Shown: positions 3,822-37,633 of the stretch, piece by piece
Position numbering within the stretch: the stretch's first letter is position 1
Layout: every line of letters starts with the position of its first letter
From: Candidatus Cloacimonadota bacterium
Lineage (GTDB): Bacteria > Cloacimonadota > Cloacimonadia > JGIOTU-2
Direction of reading: 5' to 3'
Assembly (NCBI GenBank): GCA_049903315.1
Contig: JBNGBT010000007.1
Span: forward strand, 6,561-70,560
Length of the DNA: 64,000 nt
Made by a program: the position numbers and the translations under genes
The notes under the pieces: model-generated
Seen by the model: the letters and a program-made list of their open reading frames with translations, nothing else
The model's database searches: none
What the model was told of the DNA's origin: nothing

Positions 3822-3833
3822 ACAATCCCACAG

Positions 3834-13618: not shown

Positions 13619-13630
13619 TGGTTAAAAAGT

Positions 13631-13705: not shown

Positions 13706-13717
13706 ATTTCTATAAAT

Positions 13718-13809: not shown

Positions 13810-13822
13810 AAAAAGAACAAAA

Positions 13823-20918: not shown

Positions 20919-21195
20919 TATATTTTGTTTATCTAATCTTTTAATAAATTTGACAAATAGGAATCTTATTTTCAATATTGGAAATGCTTATAAATAAATT
21001 AGTCTTTATATCTAAAAAAGATGAGGTTATGGTAAAAAAAGAAAATGCTATGTTAATGTCTAAGTTAGGCTTAAAACCAGTTTTATCTCATCACTTATTG
21101 GCTGGTTATACCCCCGAGGGGAACTTTATTCACTTCTATGCGAGGTTATTTATTATGTTAACGAAATCTGATTTATTAAAATCGGAGGAGACGGT

Positions 21196-24045
21196 ATGAA
21201 AAAACTTATTGGATTAACGATCGTGGCCTTGTTCATTACCTCACTTGCATTTGCAGTTAATTATACAAGTGGAGAAATGAGCAAAGGAACACCTTCAAAC
21301 TTTGAATTACACCCGAACTATACTCCTGGTGAACAGATTCACAGAGTTGCACCTAAAAATGTAGACCCTTATCGTGACGCTCCAGATCCAGAAGGTGTTC
21401 AACTTTTATATTGGGAGAACTTTGAAACCGAAGATGACATTTGGTATTACGCTAATCTTTCTTATTACTGGGTTATTCCTGTTGAAGCTTCTGAGTTCGG
21501 AACTCGTTTTACTGCCTATAGATCCGGCGACCTTGTAGGTGCATGGTTCTATTGGTATACTGGAAATGGTGGAGACGCTGATGTTCATGTCTATGCAGAT
21601 GATGGCACTGGATATCCTGGTGCTGGTTTAGGCAGTGTTTCAGTCACACCAGTTCTTAACGACTGGAACTATGTAGATCTTTCTGGTCTTGGAATTTCTG
21701 TTGATCCCTCTGCGGACTTCTTTATCACCTATAGTGTAGAAGCTGGTGATACTCTTAGTATTCTTTCAGATGATGGCGCGACTACAAATAATCGTGCACT
21801 TGAAGTACTTCCTACACTCAAAGATTGGACCTATATGGTTAACGATTGGGGTGCAGACTACGAATGGTGCCTTGAAGCAATCATCGAGCACGACACAGAC
21901 CCCTGGGTTCCTGAGATTGCAGGCAGATGGCAGTGGGTCGATACAGATTATAACAGCCCCACTCATTCATGGTGGATTGCTGATGATACAGCATATCAAG
22001 GATACAACTGGCTCAGCTCTGAACCCTTTACTATAGGTGACGACTATGCTTTGGTCCAGGTAGATTACGCATATAGAAGCAGCTTACCTGAAGCAGTGTA
22101 TTCAGATGAATATTGGTCATTCTACATTGGAAATACAGCCGATGGTATTGATTGGCATGCGTCAACCTATAATGCTTATAACGCTGGCACATCTTGGTAT
22201 GGCGGCGATGAAGTAACTCATGAATACGGTACAAGCGCAATTTATTATTTGTACACACCAGATATCGATCTTACCACTGCTTGTGAAGCTACATTAACCT
22301 GTATGCTTGATTATGATACAGAAGCACCAGGCGGAGAAGACCCACCATTCAACGGTTGGGATGTTGCAAATGTTCAGATATCAACAGATGGCTGGGCAAC
22401 TAAAGGATTCCTTGAAGATCCTTCAAATCCTTATAATGTAACTATTGCTTTTGCCGGTTGGGCAAACACTTCACTTCCTGCAGACACATTGAGCTATCCC
22501 GGTTGGGGTGGTCCAAGTCCTGCCGGCTGGTTCGCAGCTACTTTCGATCTTGCTGCATACCTTGGTGAAACAGTTCAGATCCGTTTTGCTCTTGCATCAG
22601 ATCCGTATACTGTAGCTCAGGGATTCTGGGTTGATAATCTTGATATTACCGCAGATGGCTCAGTCATATTCTCAGATTATGATGAGACCAACTTAATTCC
22701 TGCCCCTCCAGTTGTTGTTCTTGAAGAGCTCGAATACCTGGATACTTATACTGATGAAGATTGGTATGTTACTGATAAATATGACATTTCAATGTACGCT
22801 GGCGAGGAAGTAATTCTTAAGATGAAAGCTACCCTTGCAGACGATGCTGGTTCCGGAGAAGGTTTCTGGTTCGATGACATCCAGATAACCGGAGCCAATC
22901 TTCCTGTTCATGATATGGCAGCAATGTTCAATGTAATGCCGTATGGTGCGACCGAAGGATGGGATTATAGTCCCGGTATCGTTTATGGAAATTACGGAAC
23001 AACAATCGAAGGTCCACAGCTTAGAATGGATAACCTTGATTATGGTACAACTCCATTCGATTATTACAATAACAATCCTCCAGCTATTGGCTATGGTGAA
23101 TTTGATCTCGCATGGCTCACTCAACTGACAGCACTTCCTGGCGCTGGCTGGTATGATTTCTGTGGTTGGACAGAGGTTGGTGGCGATGAAGATCCCACAA
23201 ATGACTCTACCTATTTCTGGGGTGTCGAAGTATATCCCGCAGGATGGGCAGAATTCGGTAATAACTCCAGAGTATGGAGTGAAGACTTTTATACTTCTGG
23301 ATACTGTGGAAACTGGTTTGATATCTTCGATGGTGCTCGTATGACATCATTTGATATCTATTCAGTTTGGACTCAGGTTATTAACTATGGTTCGACTGGT
23401 GATGTCGATACATGGACAGTTGAGATATTCGAAGCTGTCGATGACCTTACTCCCGGAGCAAGCCTATACTACGGTTCATTTGATTGTACCGGTATTGACG
23501 GTGATGACTTTGGCTGGGTTGAATTCGTTCTTCCTACTCCATTACACATTACCGGTAATGTCATAGTTATGATCGGTGGTGTTTGGGTTGGCGGGTCTCC
23601 TGGTGTTGATGCCAGCTACTTCCCTGCATTTGATAGCATGGTCAGAAACTACCTGGGTGTCGGTGCATACTATGGACACAGTGTGTACGGTACAGAAGGC
23701 GATCCTGCAACTTGGGGACATTCCTCAGGTGACCGTTTCGTCAACATCTATGGTCGCGTAGATTATGCTACAGGTCCTGATGTTCCTGGTGATGTGAGTT
23801 ATCTCAACCAGAACGTGCCAAATCCTGTCACAAATAATGCTACTATTAGTTACCATATAAAGGGCTCTCCAATGAACAATGCAGAGATCAAGATATATAA
23901 CGTACTTGGTCAGCTTGTTGATACAGTCCAGGGCGAGAATGGTATCGCTACCTGGAATCCTGGTGATGCACCTAATGGTGTCTATTTCTACAAAGTATCA
24001 TCCGACGACTTCACTTCAGTGAAGAAAATGATCCTTATGAGATAA
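21196..24045 (+). CDS. T9SS-secreted surface protein, Trp/Tyr/Asp/Gly-rich, 949 aa
   Basis: Strong RBS GGAGGAG; signal peptide; repeated blocks ending FWVDNLDIT / FWFDDIQIT; C-terminal T9SS CTD (VPNPVTNNATISY...IKIYNVLGQLV...GVYFYKV); GC content and codon usage visibly differ from neighbours. Confidence 0.8.
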   Translation: MKKLIGLTIVALFITSLAFAVNYTSGEMSKGTPSNFELHPNYTPGEQIHRVAPKNVDPYRDAPDPEGVQLLYWENFETEDDIWYYANLSYYWVIPVEASEFGTRFTAYRSGDLVGAWFYWYTGNGGDADVHVYADDGTGYPGAGLGSVSVTPVLNDWNYVDLSGLGISVDPSADFFITYSVEAGDTLSILSDDGATTNNRALEVLPTLKDWTYMVNDWGADYEWCLEAIIEHDTDPWVPEIAGRWQWVDTDYNSPTHSWWIADDTAYQGYNWLSSEPFTIGDDYALVQVDYAYRSSLPEAVYSDEYWSFYIGNTADGIDWHASTYNAYNAGTSWYGGDEVTHEYGTSAIYYLYTPDIDLTTACEATLTCMLDYDTEAPGGEDPPFNGWDVANVQISTDGWATKGFLEDPSNPYNVTIAFAGWANTSLPADTLSYPGWGGPSPAGWFAATFDLAAYLGETVQIRFALASDPYTVAQGFWVDNLDITADGSVIFSDYDETNLIPAPPVVVLEELEYLDTYTDEDWYVTDKYDISMYAGEEVILKMKATLADDAGSGEGFWFDDIQITGANLPVHDMAAMFNVMPYGATEGWDYSPGIVYGNYGTTIEGPQLRMDNLDYGTTPFDYYNNNPPAIGYGEFDLAWLTQLTALPGAGWYDFCGWTEVGGDEDPTNDSTYFWGVEVYPAGWAEFGNNSRVWSEDFYTSGYCGNWFDIFDGARMTSFDIYSVWTQVINYGSTGDVDTWTVEIFEAVDDLTPGASLYYGSFDCTGIDGDDFGWVEFVLPTPLHITGNVIVMIGGVWVGGSPGVDASYFPAFDSMVRNYLGVGAYYGHSVYGTEGDPATWGHSSGDRFVNIYGRVDYATGPDVPGDVSYLNQNVPNPVTNNATISYHIKGSPMNNAEIKIYNVLGQLVDTVQGENGIATWNPGDAPNGVYFYKVSSDDFTSVKKMILMR

Positions 24046-24059: not shown

Positions 24060-24097
24060 AGCCCTACTTCGTTTATTCGGAGTGGGGCTTTTTTTTT
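24060..24097 (+). terminator. Rho-independent terminator after the 949-aa gene
   Basis: AGCCCTACTTCG / CGGAGTGGGGCT stem (12 bp with two G-U pairs), 6-nt loop, then T8. Confidence 0.7.
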
Positions 24098-24106: not shown

Positions 24107-25975
24107 ATGGAAAAAACTCCCACTAATAATTCATATAAAATTCAACCTCTGATTTATTTAATTGCGCTTCTAATTTTAATTAATCCATTATTCATTTCTG
24201 TTCAAAAATATCTTATTTTCTCAACAAAAATATTAATACAGCAGATATTTATCATAACTATACTTTTCGTATATTTAATAGCAAAGGATTACAAAAAGCT
24301 CAAACTTTCTTTTCCGGTAATTATAATTTCTACCTATATATTGTATCTTTTTGTACGAACATTGTTACAACCGGTTTCAGCGTTTGGATTTCAGCAGTTG
24401 TATTATCTCTTCCCTTATACATTACTTTTTATTATAATATTGCAGCTTCATATCAACGATAATGAAAAGATATTCTTAAGTAATAGCTTCCTTTTAAGTT
24501 TCATTATTTCGATCGCATTTGGTGTATTTTTACAGAACAAGTATTCCACTTTTTCAAATTTTTCCCGACTGCAATTGTCATGGGCAAATGCAAACTATCT
24601 CGCAAGCTATCTACTCGTCACAATTGGATTTATTCTCTATACATGGAAAAGCACAAAAAAGAAATGGATTCATATCACAGCATTGATAAGTCTGATAGCC
24701 GCACTCGCATTTTTGTTCTGGACACAATCCAGAGGGGGAATGCTCAGTCTCATTTTAGTGCTTCTTATTGTATACATCATTTATGCGATAAAAAAACAAA
24801 AAAAATTACATATATTTATTTCATTTACAATTTTGATACTTTTACTATTAAGTTTTAACTATGTTTTCAGAACAATACGTCCTCAGACAATTACATTTCG
24901 TGAGCGTGTCTATAAGGCAAATGTAGAATATATTAAACATAACTGGTTATTTGGAAGCGGATTAGGCACATTCATAAATGAATTCCCCCGATATAGACTC
25001 AAGGATTATAAACTCCTTGGACAGGAGGACATCATTTCTCATGCCCATAATGAATTCGTTGAGATATGGGTGGAAACAGGTATTCTCGGGCTTGCTTTAT
25101 TTATTGCCTTCCTCTTTGCGTTAATAAGACAATATAAAAGAAAAATACATTCAAAGGATAAATATTTTATCTATGTTACTGCATTCTCTCTCGTACTTTT
25201 ATTGATACATAATTTATTCTCCATCACGATGCGGATTCCGCCAATTCTCATCTATTTTTTTATTCTTGCAGGTTTTCTCTCAGCTGATTATTCCAAAGAA
25301 ACAGAAAAGGAAACCTACTCCATATCTAAATATATTTTGTTAGTATTTATTTTTGGTTTGGTAATCTGTGCGGTTAACCAATATCGAACTATCCGGGGAC
25401 TTGATCATTTCTCTAAATCAGAGAGTTATTACGCATCAAAAGACAATAAGTTGCTCCCAAATGCAATTCTTGAAGCTGAAATCGCACAAAAATTTATTCC
25501 AAATAATACAGACTTGCTCTATCATCAAGGATTGCTCTATACAATAAGTGAGAATCATTCAAGTGCACTTCAAACATATAAAATGCTGGAGCGAATTTCT
25601 CCAAACTATCCGCAACTCCATTTCTGGAAAGGCTATTTACTCTCTCTTTCTGGTGCGTGGACACTCTCAGTGAAAGAATATAAAAAAGAAATAAGGTATA
25701 ACGAATACCCGAAGGTTTATTTCAATTTGGCAATTGCATACCATTATCTTGCCGATGAGAGTAATTCGATGATGAATTTCCTGATCTTTGCAGAAAAAAT
25801 CAAGCAGAAAACGGAACGGCATCTTATAAAAGATAAAGACAGGATTATGAAAGAAGAGGGTAGGAATCTGAAATTTGCACTTGATAATCTGGCTAAATAT
25901 TACGAAGGCAATCAATCTATGATTGACAGAATTGATTATTTGAGACAGTATTTTTTTGCTGAAAACAGTAATTAA
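24107..25975 (+). CDS. O-antigen ligase (Wzy_C)-like polytopic membrane protein fused to C-terminal TPR repeats
   Basis: About 10 TM helices with a Wzy_C-like block (SHAHNEFVEIWVETGILGLALFIAFLFALI); C-terminal ~230 aa TPR-like. Confidence 0.65.
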   Translation: MEKTPTNNSYKIQPLIYLIALLILINPLFISVQKYLIFSTKILIQQIFIITILFVYLIAKDYKKLKLSFPVIIISTYILYLFVRTLLQPVSAFGFQQLYYLFPYTLLFIIILQLHINDNEKIFLSNSFLLSFIISIAFGVFLQNKYSTFSNFSRLQLSWANANYLASYLLVTIGFILYTWKSTKKKWIHITALISLIAALAFLFWTQSRGGMLSLILVLLIVYIIYAIKKQKKLHIFISFTILILLLLSFNYVFRTIRPQTITFRERVYKANVEYIKHNWLFGSGLGTFINEFPRYRLKDYKLLGQEDIISHAHNEFVEIWVETGILGLALFIAFLFALIRQYKRKIHSKDKYFIYVTAFSLVLLLIHNLFSITMRIPPILIYFFILAGFLSADYSKETEKETYSISKYILLVFIFGLVICAVNQYRTIRGLDHFSKSESYYASKDNKLLPNAILEAEIAQKFIPNNTDLLYHQGLLYTISENHSSALQTYKMLERISPNYPQLHFWKGYLLSLSGAWTLSVKEYKKEIRYNEYPKVYFNLAIAYHYLADESNSMMNFLIFAEKIKQKTERHLIKDKDRIMKEEGRNLKFALDNLAKYYEGNQSMIDRIDYLRQYFFAENSN

Positions 25976-26051
25976 CGAAAAACTCTTTAATTTTCTTTAC
26001 TATCCTAGAGGTGCCCTTTTTAAATAGGTATTTTTAAGGAACTTAGAGATA

Positions 26052-27695
26052 ATGCATAAAAAGAAATATGAAGATCTTGTAAAGAAGTTAAGAGAGAAAT
26101 ATCCTGAGCGCCAGAAAGAATTTATTACAGGCTCCTCAGAAGAAGTACAACGTCTATATACACCAGAAGATACAAAAGAAATAGATTATGACAGGGATAT
26201 TGGATATCCCGGACTCTATCCTTTCACGCGCGGTGTCCAGCCAACAATGTACAGAGGAAGGTTGTGGACAATGCGCCAGTATGCTGGATTCGGTACAGCA
26301 GAAGAATCGAACCAACGATATAAATTTCTCCTCTCACAAGGTCAGACCGGTTTATCCATTGCTTTTGACCTTTGTACACAAATTGGGTATGATTCTGATG
26401 ATCCGATATGTGTTGGGGAAGTGGGGAAGGTAGGAGTGGCAATTGACTCTCTCGCAGATATGGAAATTCTTTTTGACGGTATCCCACTTGATAAAGTATC
26501 AACTTCTATGACCATCAACGCTCCTGCTGCGATCGTTCTTGCAATGTATATAGCTGTTGCAGAAAAACAAGGCGTCGCACTGGATCAATTAACAGGTACG
26601 ATCCAGAATGATATTCTCAAAGAATACATCGCTCGTGGCACCTATATATTTCCTATAAAACCTTCAATGAGGCTCATCACGAATATTTTTGAGTATTGCT
26701 CGAAACATGTGCCAAATTGGAACACGATCTCCGTATCTGGCTATCATATCAGAGAAGCTGGTTCAACTGCAGCAGAGGAAATTGCATTTACTCTTGCTGA
26801 TGGTATTGCATATGTACAGGCAGCTATAGATGCAGGATTGGAAGTTGATGACTTCGCTCCCCGAATCTCGTTCTTTTTCAATGCTCAGAACGATCTCTTT
26901 GAAGAGGTTGCTAAATTCCGTGCTGCAAGGCGGTTATGGGCGCAAATCATGAAAGACAGATTTCATTCGAATAATCCTAAATCTCAAATGTTACGCTTTC
27001 ATACACAAACAGGCGGCTCTACGCTTACTGCTCAACAATCCGACAATAATATCGTAAGGATCACGATTCAAGCTCTTGCAGCGGTTCTTGGAGGCACACA
27101 ATCCCTTCATACAAACTCACGGGACGAAGCACTCGCGCTTCCTACTGAGGAATCTGTTCGGATCGCACTTCGGACACAGCAAATACTTGGATTTGAAAGT
27201 GGTGTTACAAATACTATCGATCCACTCGCGGGTTCATATTTTGTAGAAAAAATGACTGAAGAAATCGAAAAAAAAGCAAAAAAACACATTCGGCGAATTG
27301 ATGAACTTGGTGGAATGGTTGAAGCTATTGAAAAGGGATATGTACAAAAACAAATCCAGGATAGCGCTTACAAGTATCAGAAGCAGATCGAGAAAAATGA
27401 ACGAATAATTGTCGGAGTTAATAAATTTACTACTGAAAAGGAATCACCAAAAAACTTACTTCGAGTTGATGAAAAAGTTGAACAACTACAAGTTAAAAAA
27501 TTGCACAAGATAAAAGCTCAAAGAGATGAGAAAAAAGTGCATGAAAATCTAGAAAAAATACGTAAAATTTCTCGAACTGAAGAGAACCTCATTCCGTCAA
27601 TTCTCGAAGCTGTGAAGACCTATGCCACTCTTGGTGAAATTTGTAATGTGTTACGTGAGGAATTTGGTGAATATAGCGAACAAATTGTTTTTTAA
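26052..27695 (+). CDS. Methylmalonyl-CoA mutase family, large (substrate-binding) subunit without B12 domain
   Basis: [56 protein letters not shown]; MCM-like Tyr and Arg positions appear retained (alignment by eye). Confidence 0.85.
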
Positions 27696-27710
27696 GAGAA
27701 TCGTAATAAT

Positions 27711-28106
27711 ATGAAAAAAATAAAAATATTAATTGCAAAACCTGGCCTTGATGGACATGACAGGGGAGCGAAATTTGTTTCTCAAGTCCTCAGGAATGCC
27801 GGTTATGAAGTCATATATACAGGCATTCGTCAAACACCAGAACAAATAGTCACTTCTGCGATACAAGAGGACGTAGATTTTCTTGGAATGAGTATCCTGT
27901 CCGGTGCACATAATGTGCTCTTCAAAAAAGTTATGGATATCCTCCGAAATGAAAATACGGATGATATAATTGTGTTTGCCGGGGGCGTTATACCTGAGGA
28001 TGATATACCGTATTTGAAATCGCTGGGTATCAAAGAAATTTTCACGCCCGGAACCTCTTCGAAAAAAATAATTGAATTTATTGAAAACAATGCATCAAAA
28101 GAGTAA
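27711..28106 (+). CDS. Cobalamin (B12)-binding small subunit of acyl-CoA mutase
   Basis: 131 aa; DxHxxG motif (LDGHDRGAKFV) and Rossmann-like B12-binding fold signature. Confidence 0.85.
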   Translation: MKKIKILIAKPGLDGHDRGAKFVSQVLRNAGYEVIYTGIRQTPEQIVTSAIQEDVDFLGMSILSGAHNVLFKKVMDILRNENTDDIIVFAGGVIPEDDIPYLKSLGIKEIFTPGTSSKKIIEFIENNASKE

Positions 28107-28124
28107 TAAATTATAGGAGATCTT

Positions 28125-29504
28125 ATGGTTAAATATCCTGTTGAACCGTTTAAAATAAAGATGGTCGAACCCATTAAAATATTGGATAGAGAACAAAGGA
28201 TCAAAAAGATCAAGCAGGCAAAATATAATCTTTTCAATCTAAAAGCTGAGGATATTTTTATCGATCTTCTTACCGACAGCGGAACTTCTGCTATGAGCGA
28301 CTCACAATGGGCTGGTATCATGCGGGGTGATGAATCCTATGCAGGAAGCAGGAGTTATTTGCATTTCGAGCGATCAGTCAAAAATATCTTCGGTTATGAA
28401 AATATCATTCCAACCCATCAGGGAAGAGCTGCAGAAGCAATTTTATTTTCGACTATTCTCAAGCCCGGTGATTATGTGCCAAGCAATATTCATTTTGATA
28501 CCACTGAGGGAAACATACGCAATAATGGTGGAATTCCAGTGGCGTGTGTGATTGATGAAGGATTGGATCCAGCAAGTATTTATCCATTCAAAGGAAATAT
28601 CGATCTTAATAAATTACAAAAGCTGGTAGATGAAGTTGGCGTTGAGAATATCCCAATTGCTATGATCACAATTACCAATAACAGTGGGGGTGGTCAGCCG
28701 GTTTCGTTGGAAAATATCAAACAGGTTTATCATTTTTGGAAAAAACTGAACGTCCCGTTCTTTATTGATGCGTGCCGTTATGCAGAGAATGCGTATTTCA
28801 TAAAGATGAGAGAAAAGGAATACGAAAATTCATCAATTGAAGAAATTGCAAAAGAAATATTTGCGCACGCTGATGGTGCGACTATGTCAGCAAAAAAGGA
28901 TGCATTGGTGAATATTGGCGGCTTTATCACATTGAAAGACAGTGAGCTTGCTCAAAGACTCATAAGCAAACTCATTATCACAGAAGGTTTTAAAACCTAT
29001 GGAGGATTATCCGGACGCGATCTCGAGGCTGTTGCAATCGGTTTACAGGAAGGATTGAACGAAGATTACTTGAGATATAGGATCGAGCAAACTGCATATC
29101 TCGGTGAAAGTCTATTGGAGAAGGGCATCCCAATTGTACGCCCTCCCGGGGGTCATGCGATTTATATCGACGCACTCTCTGTACTTCCAGATATCCCTCA
29201 GAAATATTTCCCTGCACAAGCCCTTGCTATAGCATTGTACATTGAAGGTGGAATACGCGGAGTTGAGATTGGCAGTATCATGTTTGCATATAATGATGAA
29301 AAAACTGGAGAAACCATCTATCCCAAACTAGAACTTGTGCGCCTTGCAATACCGCGCCGTGTATATACGAGAGCGCATCTCGATTGTGTTGTTAAAACTG
29401 TGAAGAAAGTCATGGATAACAGACATCACCTGAAGGGATTACGTATAACTTATCAACCAAAATTACTCAGACATTTTACTGTTGAGTTAGAAGAAATTTC
29501 ATAG
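28125..29504 (+). CDS. tnaA: Tryptophanase / tyrosine phenol-lyase family (PLP beta-eliminating lyase)
   Basis: 459 aa; PLP-lysine context GATMSAKKDALVNIGG matches the TnaA/TPL family; RBS AGGAG. Confidence 0.82.
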   Translation: MVKYPVEPFKIKMVEPIKILDREQRIKKIKQAKYNLFNLKAEDIFIDLLTDSGTSAMSDSQWAGIMRGDESYAGSRSYLHFERSVKNIFGYENIIPTHQGRAAEAILFSTILKPGDYVPSNIHFDTTEGNIRNNGGIPVACVIDEGLDPASIYPFKGNIDLNKLQKLVDEVGVENIPIAMITITNNSGGGQPVSLENIKQVYHFWKKLNVPFFIDACRYAENAYFIKMREKEYENSSIEEIAKEIFAHADGATMSAKKDALVNIGGFITLKDSELAQRLISKLIITEGFKTYGGLSGRDLEAVAIGLQEGLNEDYLRYRIEQTAYLGESLLEKGIPIVRPPGGHAIYIDALSVLPDIPQKYFPAQALAIALYIEGGIRGVEIGSIMFAYNDEKTGETIYPKLELVRLAIPRRVYTRAHLDCVVKTVKKVMDNRHHLKGLRITYQPKLLRHFTVELEEIS

Positions 29505-29512
29505 GACAAAAA

Positions 29513-30742
29513 ATGGGTAAAACAATTGTAGAAAAAATAATTCAGCTCCATTCTGAAGAAGAAGCCGTAGCTGGTAAGATAGTATGGATGAAACTCGATG
29601 TTCGTACTGCCCGTGATTTTGGCGGACCAAATGTGGTTAAAAATTTAGAAAAACACTATCCTGACGCAGAATTGCCGGACAAAGAAAACGTATTTTTTAC
29701 TTTCGATACTGTCGCACCTGCCAAAACAATTCCTTATGCAAATAATCAGCAAATTTGCCGTGAGTTTGCGAACAAGAACGGGCTCAAAGTTTATGATGTG
29801 GATGCAGGTATCGGCACACATATTCTTATGGAAAAAGGATTTGCACGACCCGGCAGAACTCTGGTCGGAACCGACAGCCATTTTAACATTCTTGGAGCAG
29901 TTAATGCTTTTGGACAAGGCATGGGTGATCAGGATATTGCATTCGGATTCAGTACAGGGAGAACATGGTTTGAAGTTCCGGAAACCATAAAAGTAAATCT
30001 TAAAGGCACATTCTCGTATCCTGCCACAGGGAAGGACCTTGTTCTCTACATTCTTAAAAGGATCGGCAGTAAAGGGGCACTTGGCAAATGTATTGAATAT
30101 TATGGTGAGTGCTTGCAGGATTTGACTTTTTCCGATTATATAACTTTGTGCAGCATGATGACTGAAATGGGTGGTATCGTTGCATTTCCCGAGCAAAATG
30201 CTCAAGTCAGTCAATGGCTGAAAGAACGAACAGGCGAAAATCTTCAATTCATTATTGCTGATAATGATGCTCAATATACTGAAGAAATTGAAATCGATGT
30301 TTCGGGATTACAACCTCAAATCGCATGCCCGCCAAAACCGGATAATGTTAAAGATGTTTCTGAACTTAAAGGATTAAAAGTCGGCTCAATTTTTGTGGGC
30401 TCTTGTACGAATGGTCGTATTGAGGATATGCGTTATCTTGCCGATATTCTGAAAGATAATCATGTTGCAGAAGGTATAATGCTTCGAGTCGTTCCTGCCA
30501 CACGAGAGGTTTATGGGCAAATGCTCAAAGAAGGTCTGATAGATATTCTTTTCAACGCCGGTGCTATTGTATCGAATCCGGGATGTGGCGGCTGTGCATC
30601 AGGACAGATTGGTATGACTGGTAAAGGTGAAGTTCAAATCTCTACATCAAATAGAAATTTCAAAGGCAAACAAGGTGATGGTGAAACCTATCTGGCAAGT
30701 CCTGTCACTGCAGCATTTGCCGCAATAAAAGGGGAGTTATAA
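29513..30742 (+). CDS. Aconitase-family hydro-lyase large subunit, archaeal-type LeuC/homoaconitase-like
   Basis: 409 aa; VGTDSHF, Fe-S cysteines in GSCTNGR and NPGCGGC, STSNRNFKGKQG; LeuC-like throughout. Confidence 0.85.
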   Translation: MGKTIVEKIIQLHSEEEAVAGKIVWMKLDVRTARDFGGPNVVKNLEKHYPDAELPDKENVFFTFDTVAPAKTIPYANNQQICREFANKNGLKVYDVDAGIGTHILMEKGFARPGRTLVGTDSHFNILGAVNAFGQGMGDQDIAFGFSTGRTWFEVPETIKVNLKGTFSYPATGKDLVLYILKRIGSKGALGKCIEYYGECLQDLTFSDYITLCSMMTEMGGIVAFPEQNAQVSQWLKERTGENLQFIIADNDAQYTEEIEIDVSGLQPQIACPPKPDNVKDVSELKGLKVGSIFVGSCTNGRIEDMRYLADILKDNHVAEGIMLRVVPATREVYGQMLKEGLIDILFNAGAIVSNPGCGGCASGQIGMTGKGEVQISTSNRNFKGKQGDGETYLASPVTAAFAAIKGEL

Positions 30743-30750
30743 ATAAACAT

Positions 30751-31977
30751 ATGAAGAACCTGTTTTTATTACTGCCACTGGTCATCGTTTTGTTTTCGTG
30801 CACACACAAAGACCAGGTTACCGAAATTGAAACTCCAGATCCCTACGATCATGTGTATGGAAAACTCAAAACCGGTAAATCACTTTATTCTATCCTTCTT
30901 GATAATGATATCTCCTATCAGGATGCATACAAAATCACAAAAGAGTTAAATACCCTTTATGATTTGAGATATTCACATCCAAATGATAGTTTTCATCTGA
31001 AGATTGATAGTCTCGGAGTTGTACAAATCATTGAATATTCTCCAAATAAAATTGATAAATATATTGTTGCCCGGGATTCGACTGATGAATTTGACGTATT
31101 TCAGGAGAAGCTTGTGCTTGAAAAAGATATCCTGTTACATACGACTATTCTGAAATCATCTCTCTATGAAACATTAGTTGATGGAGGATTAGATCCGCAA
31201 TTGGTTATGAAGTTCAGTGATATTTTTCAGTGGGATATTGATTTTTTTATTGATCCCCGCGAAGGTGACACCTGCTCTATAATATATGAAGCTTTCAGTC
31301 ATGATGGGGAAATCCTGAAATATGGAAATATTTTGGGAGCATCTTACCAAGGTAAACTCTTTGATCTCACTGCTTATTACTATGATAACGGCGGGAAAGA
31401 GCACGGATATTACGCCCGTGATGGTGAATCCTTCCAAAAAGCATTCCTGCGATCTCCATTAAATTACTCATACATCAGCTCATATTTTGGAATGCGGCTT
31501 CATCCGATAACAAAACAGGTATGGTTACACAGCGGTGTAGATTATGCTGCACCTCTTGGAACTCCTGTTGTCAGTTCCGCAGATGGAACAGTAATTCATA
31601 AAGGCTGGAAGGGTGGACATCCCACGCCAAAAGGAAACACCGGAGGTTATGGCAACACTGTGATGATCCGCCATACTAACGGTTTTAAAACACTCTATGG
31701 CCACTTGAATGCGTATGCCAGAAATCTCTACGTCGGCAAACGGGTGCTTCAGGGAGAAGTGATAGGGTATGTTGGCTCAACCGGTTGGTCCACAGGTCCA
31801 CACTTGCATTACACGATCTATCAGCATGATAGCCCAATTGATCCTCTCTCACTAAATAATGTTTCGGGTCCTCCCATCCCAAAAGAATATTTGGATGAAT
31901 TCATGGATTCTGTACATCATATTGACACACTCTTCAAAGAATCGAGAAAAACGTTTCTGCAATCAATTTTTGGATAA
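30751..31977 (+). CDS. M23 family metallopeptidase lipoprotein
   Basis: Lipobox LFSC; M23 motifs HSGVDYAAP, GYGNTVMIRH, HLHYTIY. Confidence 0.8.
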   Translation: MKNLFLLLPLVIVLFSCTHKDQVTEIETPDPYDHVYGKLKTGKSLYSILLDNDISYQDAYKITKELNTLYDLRYSHPNDSFHLKIDSLGVVQIIEYSPNKIDKYIVARDSTDEFDVFQEKLVLEKDILLHTTILKSSLYETLVDGGLDPQLVMKFSDIFQWDIDFFIDPREGDTCSIIYEAFSHDGEILKYGNILGASYQGKLFDLTAYYYDNGGKEHGYYARDGESFQKAFLRSPLNYSYISSYFGMRLHPITKQVWLHSGVDYAAPLGTPVVSSADGTVIHKGWKGGHPTPKGNTGGYGNTVMIRHTNGFKTLYGHLNAYARNLYVGKRVLQGEVIGYVGSTGWSTGPHLHYTIYQHDSPIDPLSLNNVSGPPIPKEYLDEFMDSVHHIDTLFKESRKTFLQSIFG

Positions 31978-32066
31978 AATGAACATGTTTGGAAAAATAG
32001 AGCATCTTAGGGATTTAATAAGCAAAAAATTTGACAGTTTATCAAGAGGAGCACGTTTTATCTATA

Positions 32067-32582
32067 ATGCAAAAGAATTGTAAAATAACTGGTAAGATTT
32101 GGCTCATTATTGACTATCAAAATACTCTTATTAATGACATTGACACTGATATGATATTTCATAATCAGTATCTTGCAATCACGGATATCAATAAAATGGG
32201 GCAATATACTTTTGATAATCTCGATGGTTGGAAAGATTTTTCACATAAAGCTCAGAAAGGTGATATCGTTGTAGTTGGGAAAAATTTTGGTGCAGGATCC
32301 TCACGGCAGCAAGCTGTAGATTGCTTTGCATCTCTTGGTATTCAAGCCATTCTCGCAGAATCCTTTGGAGCAATCTATAAAAGGAATGCTATTAACTCAG
32401 GATTACCAATCTTAACTATTACAGATATTGATCTTTCAAAACTATCACAACGGGAAGAGATCACTATTGACCTTAAAAAGGGAACTGTTTCAAATCCACA
32501 CATTCGGATTGAACCATTTTCTAAAGTACAACTTGATATTTATCAAGCAGGCAATTTGTTTGCTTTTGGCAAAAGAAATTAG
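32067..32582 (+). CDS. Aconitase-family hydro-lyase small subunit, archaeal-type LeuD-like
   Basis: KITGKIW N-terminus and GKNFGAGSSRQQAV ... AESFGAIYKRNAIN typical of short LeuD. ATG at 32067 preferred over the TTG at 32031 used by the listed ORF. Confidence 0.8.
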   Translation: MQKNCKITGKIWLIIDYQNTLINDIDTDMIFHNQYLAITDINKMGQYTFDNLDGWKDFSHKAQKGDIVVVGKNFGAGSSRQQAVDCFASLGIQAILAESFGAIYKRNAINSGLPILTITDIDLSKLSQREEITIDLKKGTVSNPHIRIEPFSKVQLDIYQAGNLFAFGKRN

Positions 32583-32617
32583 AGAAATAAAAAAACATAA
32601 AGAAAGGAGCAACAAAA

Positions 32618-35422
32618 GTGAAAGTTTGTAGTAAATTTGGACTATTACTTTTGATGTTCATGCTGCTACTGGTGAGTTCTGCATTTGGGATATTGCTTCC
32701 CAATAATGAACCTGTTGAAGGGCTGAGAGTTGAAGATGTTCCTCATGATGATGGTGGAGGGCTCATGCTGAGCTGGAAGCCTCTCCCAAAAGAAAAGCGC
32801 ATCATTGAATACCGTATTTACCGCGGCTATACTCCCGATAGTTTATTCTATATCGGAAAGATCCCGGTAGATGCCAAAACAGGTGTTGCAGCTGATACAA
32901 TGAGATATATTGATCAGGGTTGGACATTTTTTGTCGATGCAACCTCACATGCCAAGCTGAAACATGAAAAGGGGCAGAAAAAAGGAACAATAGGAGCAGA
33001 AGTGCTCTTTCGTACCGTTCCTCGTGACATGAAAATCTATGGTCCTATGATGGATCATTATCGCATGCTTGCCGTTATCCCTGATAAAGAATATGTTTAT
33101 CACACGAAGATGAGAGAGTTCACTGATATTGATACAACTGAGGATGGCACTATTGATACGACATCTACGATTCTTGCAGGAATGAAACTTGAGCAGGTCA
33201 AGTATATTCTTACTAAACTGACAGTTGGTAAAGACTATTATTATGCAATTCAAGCACTCAATATGAACCGTAGTGCATCACCTCTTTCTGAAATAGCAAC
33301 TGGACAAACGGTCGATGATCCTCCAGAAAAATTAAAAGAATTCTATGCAGTTGCTGTGACCGATAAGGAGCAGCTTCAGTTCGAATGGTCGTTGCCAGTA
33401 TTTACTTCCGACCAAAAACAATTTAATATTTACCTTTATGATGAATTCGATGATCAGCATCTTATATTTACCCGTCCGGATGCATATCCATACACTCCCC
33501 AGACCAATGCTATTGTTCCTTTCGATTCTATCGCAGCACGTTTTGAAGCATTTAATTCCGCAAATATGAAGTGGTATAAATTCAATATCGGAGAACAGGA
33601 TAGACAGGATCAGGAAACCCTTGCAAAAGATGAACCTATCCCAGCTGAAATCATCACTTCTTCTATGCTGCCCAAACCTCCTATTCATTTCACCGTAAAA
33701 GATCAGCCAAATGATAAAGGTGATCAATTGCAGGTTTTCTTTGGATATCCATATTATGGTCTTTCAAAATTATCCTATAATGATGCTTTTACAAAACTGA
33801 CGGTTAATTATTTCATTACTGAAAATTCCATGTACGAAGTAGACCGACTTATCCTTTCAATCAATGGAATAACGAAAACTGAATATGTGCTTGATAATAA
33901 ACTCGATTTCAAGGTCAATTGGGATTATAGTAAGCCAATGAAGATCACAGGAAGTTTTGTCTGTAAACATAAAGGACAAGCACCCTTACCGGAAGATTAT
34001 ACAATAACTCATACCTTTATTTTTGATCAGGAAATGCAGGTGGTCCTCGTTGACACTCCTCCTAATGAGCAGATGAAGGAATTTGAAGATTATTACTTCC
34101 AAGTTTACAAGATAAATCATACAAGTGATGTGTATAGATATGCAAAACAGATGTCTTTTAGAGAGCGGGAATATATAGATAAAGTGTCATATGAAACCGT
34201 TCAATTTCGTGGAAGACCCCGTTTCTCTCTCGAAGAAAAGCGACTTTATTTCAGTACATATTTAAGCATTGAAAATTATAAAGATCAGTATCCCTTCTAC
34301 ACTCAAGCGCTCTATCTCGATCAACTCAAACAACAGGATGAAGAAATTAAAGAAGAAATCGCAAAACTACAAGCAGAGTTAGAAACCGAAACTGATAAAG
34401 TAGAGATAGAGAAAATTGAAGATCGTATAGATCTTTTCACTGATTATCTTAATGAAAAACCAGCGATCGTCAAAGAAGCAAATCTCTTAAATACTGATAA
34501 AGAAAGAATGAAAATGCTCTATGATGTTCATTGCAAAAATATTCGTTCTTTCAAATATTATATCAGAAAGACTGACGGACGAGGGCACTTTATCGATACT
34601 CCTGTATATACAGATCCTAATGGCGAACAGTATATCTCTCCCAAACAGAATTGGTTCAACACTGATGAAATAATCACTTTCATTGCAGTGCTTTTATTTG
34701 GAGCGCTCGTGTACTTTATGATCAAAGCAGCGCGCAAAGGAAAGAGGTTATATATCAGACCTATCGCAGGTATTCAGGAGATTGATAATGCGATTGGACG
34801 AGCTACAGAAATGGGAAGACCAATCCTCTTCGTTCCAGGTTTAAGCGGCATCAGTGACGTGGCAACACTTGCAGGATTAGCGATTCTTAGCAAAGTTGCG
34901 AAGAAAGCTGCTGAATACGACACAAAAATACTCGTTCCATGCCGCGATTTCATCGTACTTCCTATTGCTCAGGAAACTGTAAAAGAAGCACACTATGAAG
35001 CTGGTCGTCCTGATACGTATGATAAAAACAGCGTATTCTTCATCACACAAGCACAGTTCGCTTTTGTAGCTGGTGTGAACGGCATAATGATTCGTGAAAA
35101 AACAGCAACGAACTTCTATATGGGAATGTTCTGGGCTGAATCTCTTCTTATGACAGAAACCGGAAGTATGACAGGTGCAATTCAGATTGCTGGAACTGAT
35201 GCAGTCAATCAGCTGCCTTTCTTCATCACAACATGTGACTATACTCTTATTGGCGAAGAACTCTATGCAGCAAGCGCTTATCTCTCAAATCAACCGCTGA
35301 TTCTTGGTACTCTCAAAGCTCAAGACTATATGAAACTGATTATTGTTCTTACCGTGATCCTTGGCACTATCCTCTCAACTGTTCACCTTACGTTCTTTAT
35401 GAACTGGTTCCCGACCAAATAG
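32618..35422 (+). CDS. Hypothetical large envelope protein (signal peptide, FN3-like region, C-terminal TM segments), 934 aa
   Basis: GTG start with RBS AAAGGAG; signal peptide; hydrophobic segments near the C-terminus; no family recognised. Confidence 0.55.
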   Translation: MKVCSKFGLLLLMFMLLLVSSAFGILLPNNEPVEGLRVEDVPHDDGGGLMLSWKPLPKEKRIIEYRIYRGYTPDSLFYIGKIPVDAKTGVAADTMRYIDQGWTFFVDATSHAKLKHEKGQKKGTIGAEVLFRTVPRDMKIYGPMMDHYRMLAVIPDKEYVYHTKMREFTDIDTTEDGTIDTTSTILAGMKLEQVKYILTKLTVGKDYYYAIQALNMNRSASPLSEIATGQTVDDPPEKLKEFYAVAVTDKEQLQFEWSLPVFTSDQKQFNIYLYDEFDDQHLIFTRPDAYPYTPQTNAIVPFDSIAARFEAFNSANMKWYKFNIGEQDRQDQETLAKDEPIPAEIITSSMLPKPPIHFTVKDQPNDKGDQLQVFFGYPYYGLSKLSYNDAFTKLTVNYFITENSMYEVDRLILSINGITKTEYVLDNKLDFKVNWDYSKPMKITGSFVCKHKGQAPLPEDYTITHTFIFDQEMQVVLVDTPPNEQMKEFEDYYFQVYKINHTSDVYRYAKQMSFREREYIDKVSYETVQFRGRPRFSLEEKRLYFSTYLSIENYKDQYPFYTQALYLDQLKQQDEEIKEEIAKLQAELETETDKVEIEKIEDRIDLFTDYLNEKPAIVKEANLLNTDKERMKMLYDVHCKNIRSFKYYIRKTDGRGHFIDTPVYTDPNGEQYISPKQNWFNTDEIITFIAVLLFGALVYFMIKAARKGKRLYIRPIAGIQEIDNAIGRATEMGRPILFVPGLSGISDVATLAGLAILSKVAKKAAEYDTKILVPCRDFIVLPIAQETVKEAHYEAGRPDTYDKNSVFFITQAQFAFVAGVNGIMIREKTATNFYMGMFWAESLLMTETGSMTGAIQIAGTDAVNQLPFFITTCDYTLIGEELYAASAYLSNQPLILGTLKAQDYMKLIIVLTVILGTILSTVHLTFFMNWFPTK

Positions 35423-35436
35423 AAAGGAGTATCATA

Positions 35437-36060
35437 ATGAAAAGACAAATACCTTTATTTATAGTTTTGATACTTGGTTTACTTTTCGTAGCTCATGTAT
35501 TTATTCCAAGCAAGCTCTCTTCTGACTACCTTGACTGGTTCATGAAATGGACGAAAGTCATTGGTCCTTTCGCAATCGTACTTGGTGTATTCAGTCTTGT
35601 ACTTGTACACTATAATAAAATAAAACGTAAAGCTCCAAACTGGGGATATAGTATTGTGACACTTGCAGCGTTGGTGATAACAACATCGGTTGGCTTCATC
35701 TGGGGTATCCAGGAGGGTACTCCATATATGTGGATTTTTGAAAACTTCAATGTTCCACTCGGGGCGACTATGTTCTCATTGCTGGCTTTTTATATAGCAT
35801 CTGCAGCATACAAAGCGTTCCGTGCTCGATCTGTCGAAGCAACTGTGCTGCTTATCGCAGCTATAATTGTCATGCTTGGTCGTGTTTCCATCGGACAGGC
35901 AATTACTCATTGGATTCCGGACATTACAGAATGGATCCTTAATGTTCCTAATCTCGCAGCTAAGCGCGGTATTGCGCTTGGTGTAGGACTTGGTATGACT
36001 GCAACGTCCCTTAAGATCATGCTTGGGATTGAGCGATCATATCTTGGTGGAAGGGATTAA
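35437..36060 (+). CDS. Hypothetical polytopic membrane protein (207 aa)
   Basis: RBS AAGGAG; about five TM helices; 14 nt after the previous gene. Confidence 0.5.
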   Translation: MKRQIPLFIVLILGLLFVAHVFIPSKLSSDYLDWFMKWTKVIGPFAIVLGVFSLVLVHYNKIKRKAPNWGYSIVTLAALVITTSVGFIWGIQEGTPYMWIFENFNVPLGATMFSLLAFYIASAAYKAFRARSVEATVLLIAAIIVMLGRVSIGQAITHWIPDITEWILNVPNLAAKRGIALGVGLGMTATSLKIMLGIERSYLGGRD

Positions 36061-36069
36061 GGGGGTATA

Positions 36070-37023
36070 ATGAAATTCGCAGATAGTATTCAAAAAGTAG
36101 ATAGAAGAATAATCTATGGAATCCTTGCCATTGCAGTCATTCTCCCTCTGGTTTTCCGTCTTGGATTAAAGACCTATACAACCACACCTGTTGAAGACTT
36201 ATATCGTCACATTGACGCTGCTGCCGGTAAAGATGACATGGCAATCCTTATGGATTTCACACATGACCCGGGCGTCCTTCCAGAGTTATATCCTATGGAC
36301 CTGGCAATCCTCAGACATTGTTTTCAAAGGAATATCAAAGTATTCACGATCTCATTCCTTCCGCAGGGAGCAGCAATTATTCAATTGGCACTTTCTGAAG
36401 TAAAAGAAGACTACCCGAACATTGAAGCTAATGTTGATTATTGCAACTTCGGTTTTAAGCCATGGAGTTTGAAACTTCCTATTATGCTTGGTATGGGTGA
36501 TGATATTGCAGAAGCGGTTGAAACAAACAGTGAGGGACTCTCGCTTGAGAATCTTCCTATTATGCAGAATCTGAAAAATTATGATAACATACAAGTTGTT
36601 GTAGAGATTTCAGGTTCTTCAATGGGGCAGTTCTGGGTTACGTATGCACGCGCAAAATTTGGTGTTGATGTTGCAGTTGGTCTTACAGCGGTTATGGCTG
36701 CAGACGTGTATCCTTTCCTGCAGACTGGTCAATTTGTTGGTAGTCTTGGCGGGTTGAAAGGTGCCGCAGAGTATGAGCAGCTTGTAGATATCTTTGCGAT
36801 GAATGGTACTGAGTTCAGCAAGAAAAATGCACGTAATATGGCGTGGGTCGAAGCACAATATGAAGAGTTGCCGGAATTAGCAAAACTCTATAAGTATAAT
36901 AAAGCTCGTATCGGCATGGATGCACAGGCAATTGTTCACGTTCTTATCATTCTCTTCATTATTCTTGGTAATATTGGCTACTTTCTTGATCGACGTGCAC
37001 AGAAAAAAAAGTTTGGTAAATAA
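36070..37023 (+). CDS. Hypothetical membrane-anchored protein (317 aa)
   Basis: N-terminal TM, large soluble domain, C-terminal TM; 9 nt after the previous gene. Confidence 0.5.
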   Translation: MKFADSIQKVDRRIIYGILAIAVILPLVFRLGLKTYTTTPVEDLYRHIDAAAGKDDMAILMDFTHDPGVLPELYPMDLAILRHCFQRNIKVFTISFLPQGAAIIQLALSEVKEDYPNIEANVDYCNFGFKPWSLKLPIMLGMGDDIAEAVETNSEGLSLENLPIMQNLKNYDNIQVVVEISGSSMGQFWVTYARAKFGVDVAVGLTAVMAADVYPFLQTGQFVGSLGGLKGAAEYEQLVDIFAMNGTEFSKKNARNMAWVEAQYEELPELAKLYKYNKARIGMDAQAIVHVLIILFIILGNIGYFLDRRAQKKKFGK

Positions 37024-37033
37024 GGAGTAAAAA

Positions 37034-37633
37034 ATGACTGAAACAATTGGAATCTGGATTGCTGCATTTTTGACACTCTGCATGTTTTCTTTCCTGTACA
37101 AGGATAATCCTTTCTACAAATTTGCAGAGCATCTCTTCGTAGGCGTTTCGATGGGTTATTATATTCCTTATACATTTTATAATGCCTTCATACCGTACGC
37201 ATACGAACCTTTGTTCCTAAAAAAGGAATACATTCTTATCATACCCTTTATCATTGGTATCATGTATTGGTTCAGGTTTTCTTCAAAATATAGCTGGATC
37301 AGCCGCTATCCCATTGCGTTTGGCATGGGTATAGTTGGTATGGGTGTTCCAATGGGTATGCATGCAAATGTGCTGGTACAAATGAGGACTATGATGCTCC
37401 CCCTCAATAATATCAACATCATATTGATTTTTGTCGGAACGATCAGCATCTTATTGTATTTCTTCTTCTCCAAAGCCCATAAAGGGGTGTACGGAAAGTT
37501 CACGTCCATTGGTATCTGGTTCATGATGGTCGGATTCGGAGCATCCTTCGGTTACACTGTGATGGCTCGTATCTCGCTACTCATTGGACGAGTGCAATTC
37601 CTTCTTGGTGATTGGTTAGGATTGATAAAGTAA
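37034..37633 (+). CDS. Hypothetical polytopic membrane protein (199 aa)
   Basis: RBS AAGGAG; about five TM helices; 10 nt after the previous gene. Confidence 0.5.
   Translation: MTETIGIWIAAFLTLCMFSFLYKDNPFYKFAEHLFVGVSMGYYIPYTFYNAFIPYAYEPLFLKKEYILIIPFIIGIMYWFRFSSKYSWISRYPIAFGMGIVGMGVPMGMHANVLVQMRTMMLPLNNINIILIFVGTISILLYFFFSKAHKGVYGKFTSIGIWFMMVGFGASFGYTVMARISLLIGRVQFLLGDWLGLIK

Follow-up and report, generated by a model that had tools for sequence, protein, structure and literature searches.

Do genes that stand close together on one strand of a Cloacimonadota contig encode a single pathway, and what does the isopropylmalate-isomerase-like enzyme among them do? The window considered here is the whole 64 kb stretch (64,000 nt) of contig JBNGBT010000007.1 from a Candidatus Cloacimonadota bacterium, and all coordinates count from its first letter. 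Six intact plus-strand open reading frames (ORFs) occupy positions 26052-32582, as read from the ORF list with families assigned by profile searches. They encode the two subunits of a split methylmalonyl-CoA mutase (MCM), a tryptophanase (TnaA), a LeuC-like large subunit, an M23 peptidase lipoprotein and a LeuD-like small subunit; the LeuC-like and LeuD-like proteins are called LeuC' and LeuD' below. The explanation that we favor, with moderate confidence, is that the string, in a marine-clade Cloacimonadota genome related to Ca. Celaenobacter, is a lineage-specific juxtaposition rather than one pathway, and that LeuC'/LeuD' is likely a tricarboxylate hydro-lyase rather than an isopropylmalate isomerase (IPMI). 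The gene string itself is ordinary, and its mutase, TnaA and M23 are of known kinds.

LeuC' (29513-30742, +, 409 aa) is, by profile search and residues, the large subunit of an aconitase-superfamily Fe-S hydro-lyase of the archaeal LeuC/HacA type. LeuD' (32067-32582, +), its small (swivel) partner subunit, matches Aconitase_C and LEUD_arch. The mechanical ORF of LeuD' starts at TTG 32031 and gives 183 aa; ATG 32067 is the likelier start, as it has GAGGAG upstream and yields a product of 171 aa, the one annotated on public contigs. The original prediction remarked that the LeuC-like protein has DSHF where DSHT is usual, and alignment to the M. jannaschii IPMI confirms this (GTDSHFNILGA in place of GADSHTCTHGA). 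The substitution is not a lone oddity, however, but one of several coordinated active-site changes found across 75 LeuC' relatives.

These changes were identified by comparing 75 distinct LeuC' sequences with a canonical set of 23 archaeal-type LeuC/HacA proteins, of which 21 come from the same loci and two are the M. jannaschii IPMI and homoaconitase; aconitase numbering was mapped onto the window protein by alignment. The groups are cleanly set apart: median identity is 57% within LeuC', and between the groups it is 36% at the median and 43% at the maximum. At the Gln72 position the canonical proteins have His (22/23; one gap) and LeuC' has Arg in 75/75 (Arg34 in the window). His101, present in 23/23 canonical sequences, is Leu, Cys or Thr in LeuC' (window Thr66), and His147 (23/23) is Ser or Thr, with the next residue always His (window Thr102, His103). 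Thr168 (23/23) gives way to Leu, Met, Phe or Tyr, after which Asn is invariant (window Phe124, Asn125), Asn258 (23/23) to Ser in 75/75 (window Ser214), and Arg452 (23/23) to Lys in 75/75 (window Lys386). The canonical set of His101, His147, Asn258 and Arg452 thus occurs in 23/23 canonical sequences and 0/75 LeuC'. Invariant in all 75 LeuC', and shared with the canonical group, are the Fe-S ligands Cys298, Cys358 and Cys361, Asp121-Ser122-His123, Glu218 and Asn380-Arg381 (the last two equivalent to Glu262 and Asn446-Arg447), and LeuD' retains GSSR at position 77 with the general-base Ser. In aconitase, His101 protonates the leaving hydroxyl, His147 belongs to the network of waters at Fe4 and Ser642 acts as general base (PMC8184944).

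The small subunit is also distinctive. Its substrate loop reads FHNQYLAIT, with the family consensus I[FY]HN.[YHF]L[AH][IV]T, where IPMI has YLVY, homoaconitase YLRT, and the canonical partners encoded in the same operons PGKYTY. Both LEU2/leud equivalog cut-offs are missed (TIGR02083, about 346 vs about 611; TIGR02084, 99 vs 246), and only broad subfamily models are passed (NF001614, 434 vs 385; TIGR02086, 414 vs 410; TIGR02087, 122 vs 109). The best solved-structure match is the M. jannaschii IPMI/citramalate isomerase (MJ0499/MJ1277; 4KP1, 3VBA), at 311 bits for the large and 83 bits for the small subunit; the M. jannaschii homoaconitase (MJ1003/MJ1271; 4KP2, 2PKP) reaches 279 and 81 bits. 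LeuC'/LeuD' shares with both enzymes the two-subunit architecture of about 410 + 170 aa, the Cys ligands, Asp-Ser-His, GSSR and the Glu262 and Asn446/Arg447 equivalents. It differs in that identity is no more than 41%, a leuA/leuB or aks context is missing, the equivalents of His101, His147, Thr168, Asn258 and Arg452 are Thr, Thr (plus His), Phe, Ser and Lys, Arg34 stands in place of a His, and the FHNQYLAIT loop replaces YLVY/YLRT. Aconitase (mitochondrial/AcnA, and the fused 650 aa 'putative aconitase') is alike in superfamily and Fe-S chemistry, and also in co-occurring with isocitrate-dehydrogenase-like and citrate-cleaving enzymes, as LeuC' does in other phyla and in marine Cloacimonadota. 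In contrast to aconitase, LeuC'/LeuD' is split, is missing several residues whose importance in aconitase has been shown by mutagenesis, and has no loop arginine of the Arg580 type. As judged from these comparisons, LeuC'/LeuD' is a discrete, strongly conserved subfamily of the aconitase superfamily; its membership of the superfamily is clear, and at the residue level it falls outside IPMI, homoaconitase and aconitase alike. In the searchable literature we found neither a characterized member of the LeuC' family nor the operon described next.

A distribution scan, made with one genome per species and two family-specific peptide patterns, placed LeuC' in the genomes of at least 592 species of Bacteria and Archaea, at 54-60% identity to the window protein. 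Hosts include Anaerolineae, Aminicenantes, Bipolaricaulota, Acidobacteriota, Planctomycetota and Thermotogaceae, as well as Thermoplasmatota, Methanomassiliicoccales and Hodarchaeota. Neighboring genes were surveyed by clustering the ORFs of all loci and verifying the outcome by tblastn. By tblastn, 72 of 81 non-Cloacimonadota loci have a LeuD-like gene no more than 10 kb from LeuC', usually directly downstream. Other neighbors in 76 non-Cloacimonadota species loci are an Iso_dh-family dehydrogenase (IsoDH; 36), a citryl-CoA lyase (CCL; 32), an HD protein (32) and subunits of citryl-CoA-synthetase (CCS) type, SucD-like in 25 and SucC-like in 21. The lyase is short and citrate-synthase-like (NF004869, 268 bits vs a cut-off of 212). 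The linked IsoDH scores highest with NAD-isocitrate dehydrogenases (260 bits), followed by the Thermus homoisocitrate dehydrogenase (234), with isopropylmalate dehydrogenases (IPMDH) at 205 bits or less. The recurrent operon reads CCSbeta-CCSalpha-CCL-HD-LeuC(DSHT)-LeuD-IsoDH-LeuC'-LeuD'-tsaB-rimI, and in 17 loci IsoDH adjoins LeuC' and no ORF for a canonical LeuC was detected in the vicinity. None of 96 loci has leuA or leuB near LeuC'; the earlier remark that these genes are missing also holds for the 64 kb window, where leuA, leuB, meaB and epimerase genes were all searched for and not found.

The recurrent operon can be seen at locus L050 (3182-12958) and also at L032, L054, L064, L073, L076, L080, L091 and L094, in Aminicenantes, 'Eubacteriales', Acidobacteriota and other hosts. 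Its CCS-like beta subunit carries a weak ferredoxin-like C-terminal extension. Within Cloacimonadota, a divergent LeuC' (69% identity, also DSHF) is encoded at L012 (913-2160) and L013 (488-1735), and is followed by a CDP-alcohol phosphatidyltransferase gene. These 6 kb contigs are without LeuD' or M23, and LeuC' there may be a second paralogue or the product of a further rearrangement.

Gene content within the phylum points in a similar direction. The counts that follow are from Table S8 of 10.1101/2025.11.11.687785, where the marine clade is 2C and housekeeping genes are counted about 18-32 times. The marine clade has 39 leuC (K01703) and 22 leuD (K01704), and 22/22 of the split MCM subunits (K01848/K01849), with 0 of each in other clades; the same is true of the NAD-isocitrate dehydrogenase type (K00030; 17) and citF (26). 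citE is counted 30 times in the marine clade and 11, 2 and 1 times in others. By comparison, marine leuB is counted once, leuA twice, cimA once, homocitrate synthase KEGG orthologues 0 times, aconitase (K01681) 4 times and citrate synthase 5 times. Given that the marine clade has 39 leuC but only 2 leuA and 1 leuB, a role in leucine synthesis is excluded at the level of the clade. The counts show that marine-clade LeuC'/LeuD' travels with a citrate-cleaving system and an isocitrate-dehydrogenase-like enzyme.

In this scenario, LeuC' and LeuD' would be the two subunits of one cytoplasmic [4Fe-4S] hydro-lyase, working with a dehydrogenase of the NAD-isocitrate/homoisocitrate type and a citryl-CoA-cleaving system. 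The enzyme is predicted to be an active hydro-lyase, since it keeps the cluster ligands as well as Asp-Ser-His, Glu, Asn-Arg and the Ser that acts as general base. It may perform one half-reaction only, given the loss of His101 and the co-occurrence of a canonical pair. By its residues, its genomic context and the clade-level gene content, LeuC'/LeuD' is predicted not to be an isopropylmalate isomerase. From context and phyletic pattern, we put only slightly short of an even chance on its hydrating or dehydrating a tricarboxylate of the citrate/cis-aconitate/isocitrate type. The narrower proposal, that the pair is an unrecognized functional class with a remodeled active site, spread among uncultured anaerobic Bacteria and Archaea, that together with an isocitrate-dehydrogenase-like enzyme and citryl-CoA lyase/synthetase or CitEF catalyzes the citrate <-> isocitrate step or half of it, is one that we can offer only tentatively. 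A related suggestion was made by Williams et al. 2021 (PMC8542988), that LeuCD-like proteins may serve as aconitase in Omnitrophota without AcnA.

The question matters because LeuC'/LeuD' is routinely annotated as '3-isopropylmalate dehydratase' (KEGG K01703/K01704) in hundreds of uncultured anaerobes, a label that the residues, the neighbors and the occurrence without leuA/leuB all indicate to be wrong. If our proposal were true, LeuC'/LeuD' would supply the 'missing aconitase' of many metabolic reconstructions, and the aconitase superfamily would gain a member working without the classical His101 acid catalyst. A substrate of the citrate/isocitrate type would require many 'incomplete TCA' (tricarboxylic acid cycle) reconstructions to be revised, among them those for Cloacimonadota, Anaerolineae, Aminicenantes, Bipolaricaulota and Thermoplasmatota. 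In marine Cloacimonadota, the enzyme may then connect mutase-derived succinyl-CoA/2-oxoglutarate to citrate cleavage.

Whether the whole string forms one unit is a separate matter. Five metabolic genes had been described as lying on one strand at 9-36 nt spacing; the shared strand stands, but the gaps between the first five genes are 15, 18, 8 and 8 nt, and the gap ahead of the LeuD-like gene is 53 nt to the TTG start or 89 nt to the ATG at 32067. Upstream, a strong intrinsic-terminator-like hairpin with a T-run (24060-24089, +) ends a gene for a protease of the type IX secretion system (T9SS). It is followed by a gene for a Wzy_C/O-antigen-ligase-like membrane protein with TPR repeats (24107-25975, +), the conserved upstream neighbor of the mutase in this lineage. 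A terminator scan found no comparable hairpin within 24107-35422, so that co-transcription is plausible, and from the spacing we consider that the string is probably co-transcribed. An Rfam scan of the whole window returned four tRNAs only, with no cobalamin riboswitch or leader, and a scan for sigma-70-like promoters found fewer sites than in shuffled sequence and is uninformative for this phylum. We dropped the idea that tnaA or M23 arrived by recent horizontal transfer because GC and GC3 (third codon positions) are uniform along the string. An identical LeuC-like protein is encoded in the NCBI metagenome-assembled genome GCA_964530025.1, and its close homologues carry the names Candidatus Cloacimonetes or Cloacimonadota, with one at 92% identity named Ca. 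Celaenobacter; the numerous T9SS-sorted proteins and the GC content (37.6%) agree with this assignment. Given that the identical gene order recurs in independent Cloacimonadota assemblies, the arrangement is not due to chance.

Conserved order is not by itself a sign of shared function in this case. Within Cloacimonadota, a backbone of Wzy-mutase-...-LeuC'-M23-LeuD'-DUF6754-three unknowns-ApbE-FolE2 is retained down to 76% LeuC' identity. However, flanking genes that are clearly unrelated (Wzy, T9SS proteases, DUF6754) are as syntenic as the mutase and LeuC', and the conserved order therefore reflects lineage synteny. In 81 loci from other phyla, the mutase, its B12 subunit, TnaA, M23, Wzy and DUF6754 were all absent within 10 kb of LeuC' (tblastn). 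The slot between mutase and LeuC' is variable: it holds tnaA in the window and in L007/L008 and L017, an unknown protein in L018, nothing in L009, and Band_7, BioY and an unknown protein in L019. In L017 (Ca. Cloacimonas sp. 4484_140), a 102 aa remnant that matches the C terminus of the large mutase subunit remains at 3741-4049, between Wzy and tnaA, with tnaA and LeuC' intact; the mutase of this locus appears to have decayed. The idea of a co-localized metabolic cluster is not borne out by these results, namely the restriction of the mutase, tnaA and M23 neighbors to Cloacimonadota (0/81 loci elsewhere), the variable tnaA slot and the mutase remnant. We suspect that the mutase, the tryptophanase and M23 would each perform ordinary, independent jobs, and treating the string as a pathway would mislead annotation.

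The position of the peptidase gene can be explained in similar terms. M23 (30751-31977, +, 408 aa) is a peptidoglycan endopeptidase lipoprotein of the M23/LytM family, MepM/ShyC-like, with a Peptidase_M23 match (PF01551, 108 bits), HSGVD at 260, HLH at 351 and the lipobox LFSC at 14-17 (Cys17). It resembles DD-endopeptidases of the MepM/ShyC type in its LytM domain, in HxxxD and HxH, and in the Csd3_N2-like N-terminal region of its orthologues. It differs from them in being a lipoprotein at the head of a Cloacimonadota-specific DUF6754 operon, flanked by the genes of the hydro-lyase subunits. As an exported lipoprotein with intact HxxxD and HxH, it cannot belong to a cytoplasmic Fe-S enzyme. 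Downstream lie the genes for the large DUF6754 membrane protein (32618-35422, +), the conserved partner of M23 across Cloacimonadota, and for three unknown proteins of 207, 317 and 199 aa (35437-37633, +) that complete the ancestral M23-DUF6754 operon. M23 orthologues are found throughout the phylum. In Ca. Tenebribacter davisii (L097) and a second lineage (L098), the orthologous M23 stands directly before DUF6754 and the same 207, 317 and 199 aa unknowns, with a divergent rseP-tgt block upstream; LeuC', LeuD', the mutase and TnaA are not present at these two loci.

Given that the M23-DUF6754 unit occurs without LeuC'/LeuD', M23 is the resident head of an older operon to which LeuC'/LeuD' are additions. 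It is true, as originally predicted, that partner subunits are separated here by an unrelated M23 gene; elsewhere the two subunit genes are usually adjacent. The notion that M23 interrupts the pair did not hold, and an insertion of M23 into a leuCD operon was rejected in view of the older unit. M23 would be an exported peptidoglycan endopeptidase whose gene originally headed an M23-DUF6754-unk207-unk317-unk199 envelope operon; an adjacent leuC'-leuD' pair would have landed upstream of that gene, after which leuD' and M23 swapped places. This single swap of adjacent genes is the simplest scenario and the most likely one. The operon spans 30751-37633 in the window, 7001-13450 in L097 and 7001-13423 in L098, in distant Cloacimonadota genera. 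DUF6754 is 930-975 aa long, the genes downstream of M23 are 45-71% identical, and the role of the operon is presumably related to the envelope.

Several observations weigh against the explanation that we favor. Tight spacing and the lack of an internal terminator fit an operon, which often implies shared function. Within the phylum, only the marine clade has the split mutase and LeuC'/LeuD', and in several genera the two stand side by side, which would fit a looser metabolic link. With respect to the substrate, an ACL-aconitase-Icd cluster of Ca. Celaenobacter encodes an aconitase of 650 aa (PMC8542988), so LeuC'/LeuD' need not be 'the' aconitase there. LeuC' is without the aconitase His101 that protonates the leaving hydroxyl and the Arg452 that binds carboxylate, the LeuD' loop is without the Arg that recognizes the distal carboxylate in aconitase and homoaconitase, and the large operons in other phyla also contain a canonical DSHT LeuCD pair. 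Some of these points would fit an enzyme acting on something other than citrate/isocitrate: a half-reaction enzyme such as a (homo)citrate dehydratase, an enzyme for another 2-hydroxy di- or tricarboxylate (of the maleate/D-malate, dimethylmalate or methylcitrate type), or even a protein with a non-catalytic role. The loss of the acid catalyst together with the gain of Arg34, His103 and Lys386 suggests a changed chemistry or binding mode, and the canonical pair in the same operons is in keeping with it. There is precedent in the Thermus homoaconitase, which catalyzes the hydration half-reaction only, and in PrpD and AcnD, which are dedicated dehydratases. However, the retained Fe-S ligands, Asp-Ser-His, Glu218, Asn380-Arg381 and GSSR argue for an active hydro-lyase, as predicted, and the genomic context is consistently tricarboxylate-related, so we regard another substrate or role as somewhat unlikely. 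It is very unlikely that LeuC'/LeuD' is a true isopropylmalate or citramalate isomerase serving leucine or isoleucine biosynthesis, its leuA and leuB partners being encoded at other sites in the genome. Such an isomerase would account for the top solved-structure match (M. jannaschii IPMI, 311 bits and 41% identity), the broad NCBIfam subfamily cut-offs that are passed and the hydrophobic LeuD' loop without Arg. It would not account for the missed LeuC and LeuD equivalog cut-offs, for the replacement of all four residues invariant in canonical IPMI and homoaconitase, for the near absence of leuA, leuB and cimA from the marine clade that bears LeuC', or for a linked dehydrogenase that in other phyla is nearer to isocitrate/homoisocitrate dehydrogenases than to IPMDH.

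If LeuC'/LeuD' is a tricarboxylate hydro-lyase, as we suspect, it could still be a step with the mutase in one carbon route of marine Cloacimonadota, in which case their adjacency is meaningful and tnaA and M23 are passengers. Such a route would run from methylmalonyl-CoA <-> succinyl-CoA (MCM) <-> 2-oxoglutarate (2-oxoglutarate:ferredoxin oxidoreductase) <-> isocitrate (a K00030-type dehydrogenase), and on through isocitrate <-> citrate (LeuC'/LeuD') <-> acetate + oxaloacetate (CitEF). The split MCM and leuD are marine-only with 22 counts each, K00030 (17), citF (26) and citE (30) are enriched in the marine clade, and the mutase-LeuC' neighborhood is retained down to 76% LeuC' identity. A conversion of succinyl-CoA to 2-oxoglutarate within propionate metabolism has also been proposed for the phylum (preprint 10.1101/2025.11.11.687785). 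Yet the mutase and LeuC' are never neighbors outside Cloacimonadota, the intervening slot is variable, L017 keeps tnaA-LeuC' with only a remnant of the mutase, and the equal synteny of unrelated flanks ascribes the conservation to the lineage; the LeuC'/LeuD' substrate that the route needs is itself only inferred. We consider this route unlikely. A dedicated catabolic operon of all five metabolic genes, for example for amino-acid or organic-acid degradation, is scarcely credible. Its appeal lies in the same strand, the 8-18 nt spacing, the lack of an internal terminator and the recurrence of the order in several assemblies, but tnaA is missing or replaced in the close relatives L009, L018 and L019, the mutase has decayed in L017, and residues indicate ordinary MCM and ordinary tryptophanase specificities. 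No known chemistry connects the substrates of these enzymes, and the association is missing in 81 loci of other phyla; the comparative data largely refute such an operon.

The mutase consists of a catalytic large subunit of the split archaeal type (26052-27695, +, 547 aa; PF01642, TIGR00641) and a B12-binding small subunit (27711-28106, +, 131 aa; TIGR00640). The large subunit covers positions 2-512 of 512 of PF01642 (786 bits) and scores 826 bits with TIGR00641; the small subunit scores 159 bits with TIGR00640 and has the DGHDRG (DxHxxG) motif with His16. The substrate residues are Tyr77 (RQYAGF), Arg195 (YIARGTY) and Tyr231-His232, with Ala104; in the alignment with human MCM, the first three sites fall on RQYAGF, MVRNTYIFP and SGYHMQEAG. 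The claim that the mutase keeps the Tyr and Arg specifying methylmalonyl-CoA is therefore upheld by alignment to human MCM and the 2-hydroxyisobutyryl-CoA mutase (HCM) HcmA, with Tyr231-His232 in addition. These residues correspond to the P. shermanii MCM determinants Tyr89, Arg207 and Tyr243-His244, of which Tyr89 and Arg207 bind the carboxylate. The Tyr89 position is Ile in HCM and Phe in isobutyryl-CoA mutase, Gln stands in for Arg207, and HCM has Asp117. The best solved-structure match is in fact HcmA (575 bits), above human MCM (525 bits), because both HcmA and the window protein belong to the split clade. HCM was rejected, as the window has Tyr77, Ala104 and Arg195 where HcmA (4R3U) has Ile, Asp and Gln. 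HcmAB (4R3U) is thus alike in its separate catalytic and B12 subunits and different at three specificity positions, whereas the P. shermanii and human MCM share the Tyr, Arg and Tyr-His substrate residues; DxHxxG is present here as well. The split archaeal-type MCM (KEGG K01848/K01849) shares the separate subunits, with meaB and the epimerase not adjacent here. By its specificity residues, the mutase is predicted to be of the MCM type.

MCM has been placed in a proposed propionate route of the phylum, with the split form K01848/K01849 confined to marine genomes, and marine Cloacimonadota have counts of 24 for MeaB (K07588) and 24 for the epimerase (K05606) (10.1101/2025.11.11.687785 and its Table S8). 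The split mutase would interconvert (R)-methylmalonyl-CoA and succinyl-CoA in this propionate/succinate route. The window also holds two paralogous GlmL/MutL-like (PF13941) systems, at 56503-59535 (+) and 8650-11556 (-). One is split into proteins of 632 aa and 374 aa and has a weak lipoyl-like domain; the other fuses both parts in one protein of 968 aa, with 39% and 31% identity to them. The family is associated with B12-dependent mutases; neither copy in the window adjoins a B12 enzyme.

The tryptophanase (tryptophan indole-lyase; 28125-29504, +, 459 aa; Beta_elim_lyase) occupies the variable slot. It passes the 'tryptophanase' subfamily model NF009709 (694 bits vs a cut-off of 285) and falls below both TnaA equivalog cut-offs (NF053783, 600 vs 750; TIGR02617, 533 vs 826). 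All three positions that distinguish tryptophanase from tyrosine phenol-lyase (TPL) are of the tryptophanase type: Asp125 (HFDTT), Val-Glu-Ile (GVEIG) and His450 (LRHFT), where the C. freundii TPL has FTTT (Thr124), SMERG (Met379/Arg381) and LRFFT (Phe448). TPL was rejected on these determinants although the scores are nearly equal. The enzyme resembles TnaA of E. coli and P. vulgaris (PDB 8SIJ, 'Tryptophanase 1') in its beta-eliminating lyase fold and pyridoxal phosphate Lys, which lies in SAKKD, and E. coli TnaA in Asp at the Asp137 position, Val-x-Ile at 394/396 and His at 463. It differs from TnaA in the equivalog scores and in that TPLs score nearly as well (about 495-500 bits), and from TnaA systems in having no tnaC leader or tnaB permease here. 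By its specificity residues, the lyase is thus predicted to be a tryptophanase, and tnaA would be an accessory gene whose product cleaves tryptophan to indole, pyruvate and ammonia.

Elsewhere in the window, the ORF at 462-1079 has a partial match to the IS200-like Y1 transposase PF01797 (residues 41-91 only) and is probably a remnant. The four tRNA genes cluster at 13545-13908 (-) and are Gln-CTG, Gln-TTG, Ser-GCT and Ser-TGA. Very large secreted proteins, encoded at 17013-24045, 43629-48812 and 3834-5285, carry T9SS C-terminal sorting and FlgD-Ig domains. Among the large T9SS-sorted proteins are a gingipain-like peptidase of family C25, beta-helix proteins and an InhA-like metalloprotease, whose gene has a raised GC (0.44) with a normal GC3.

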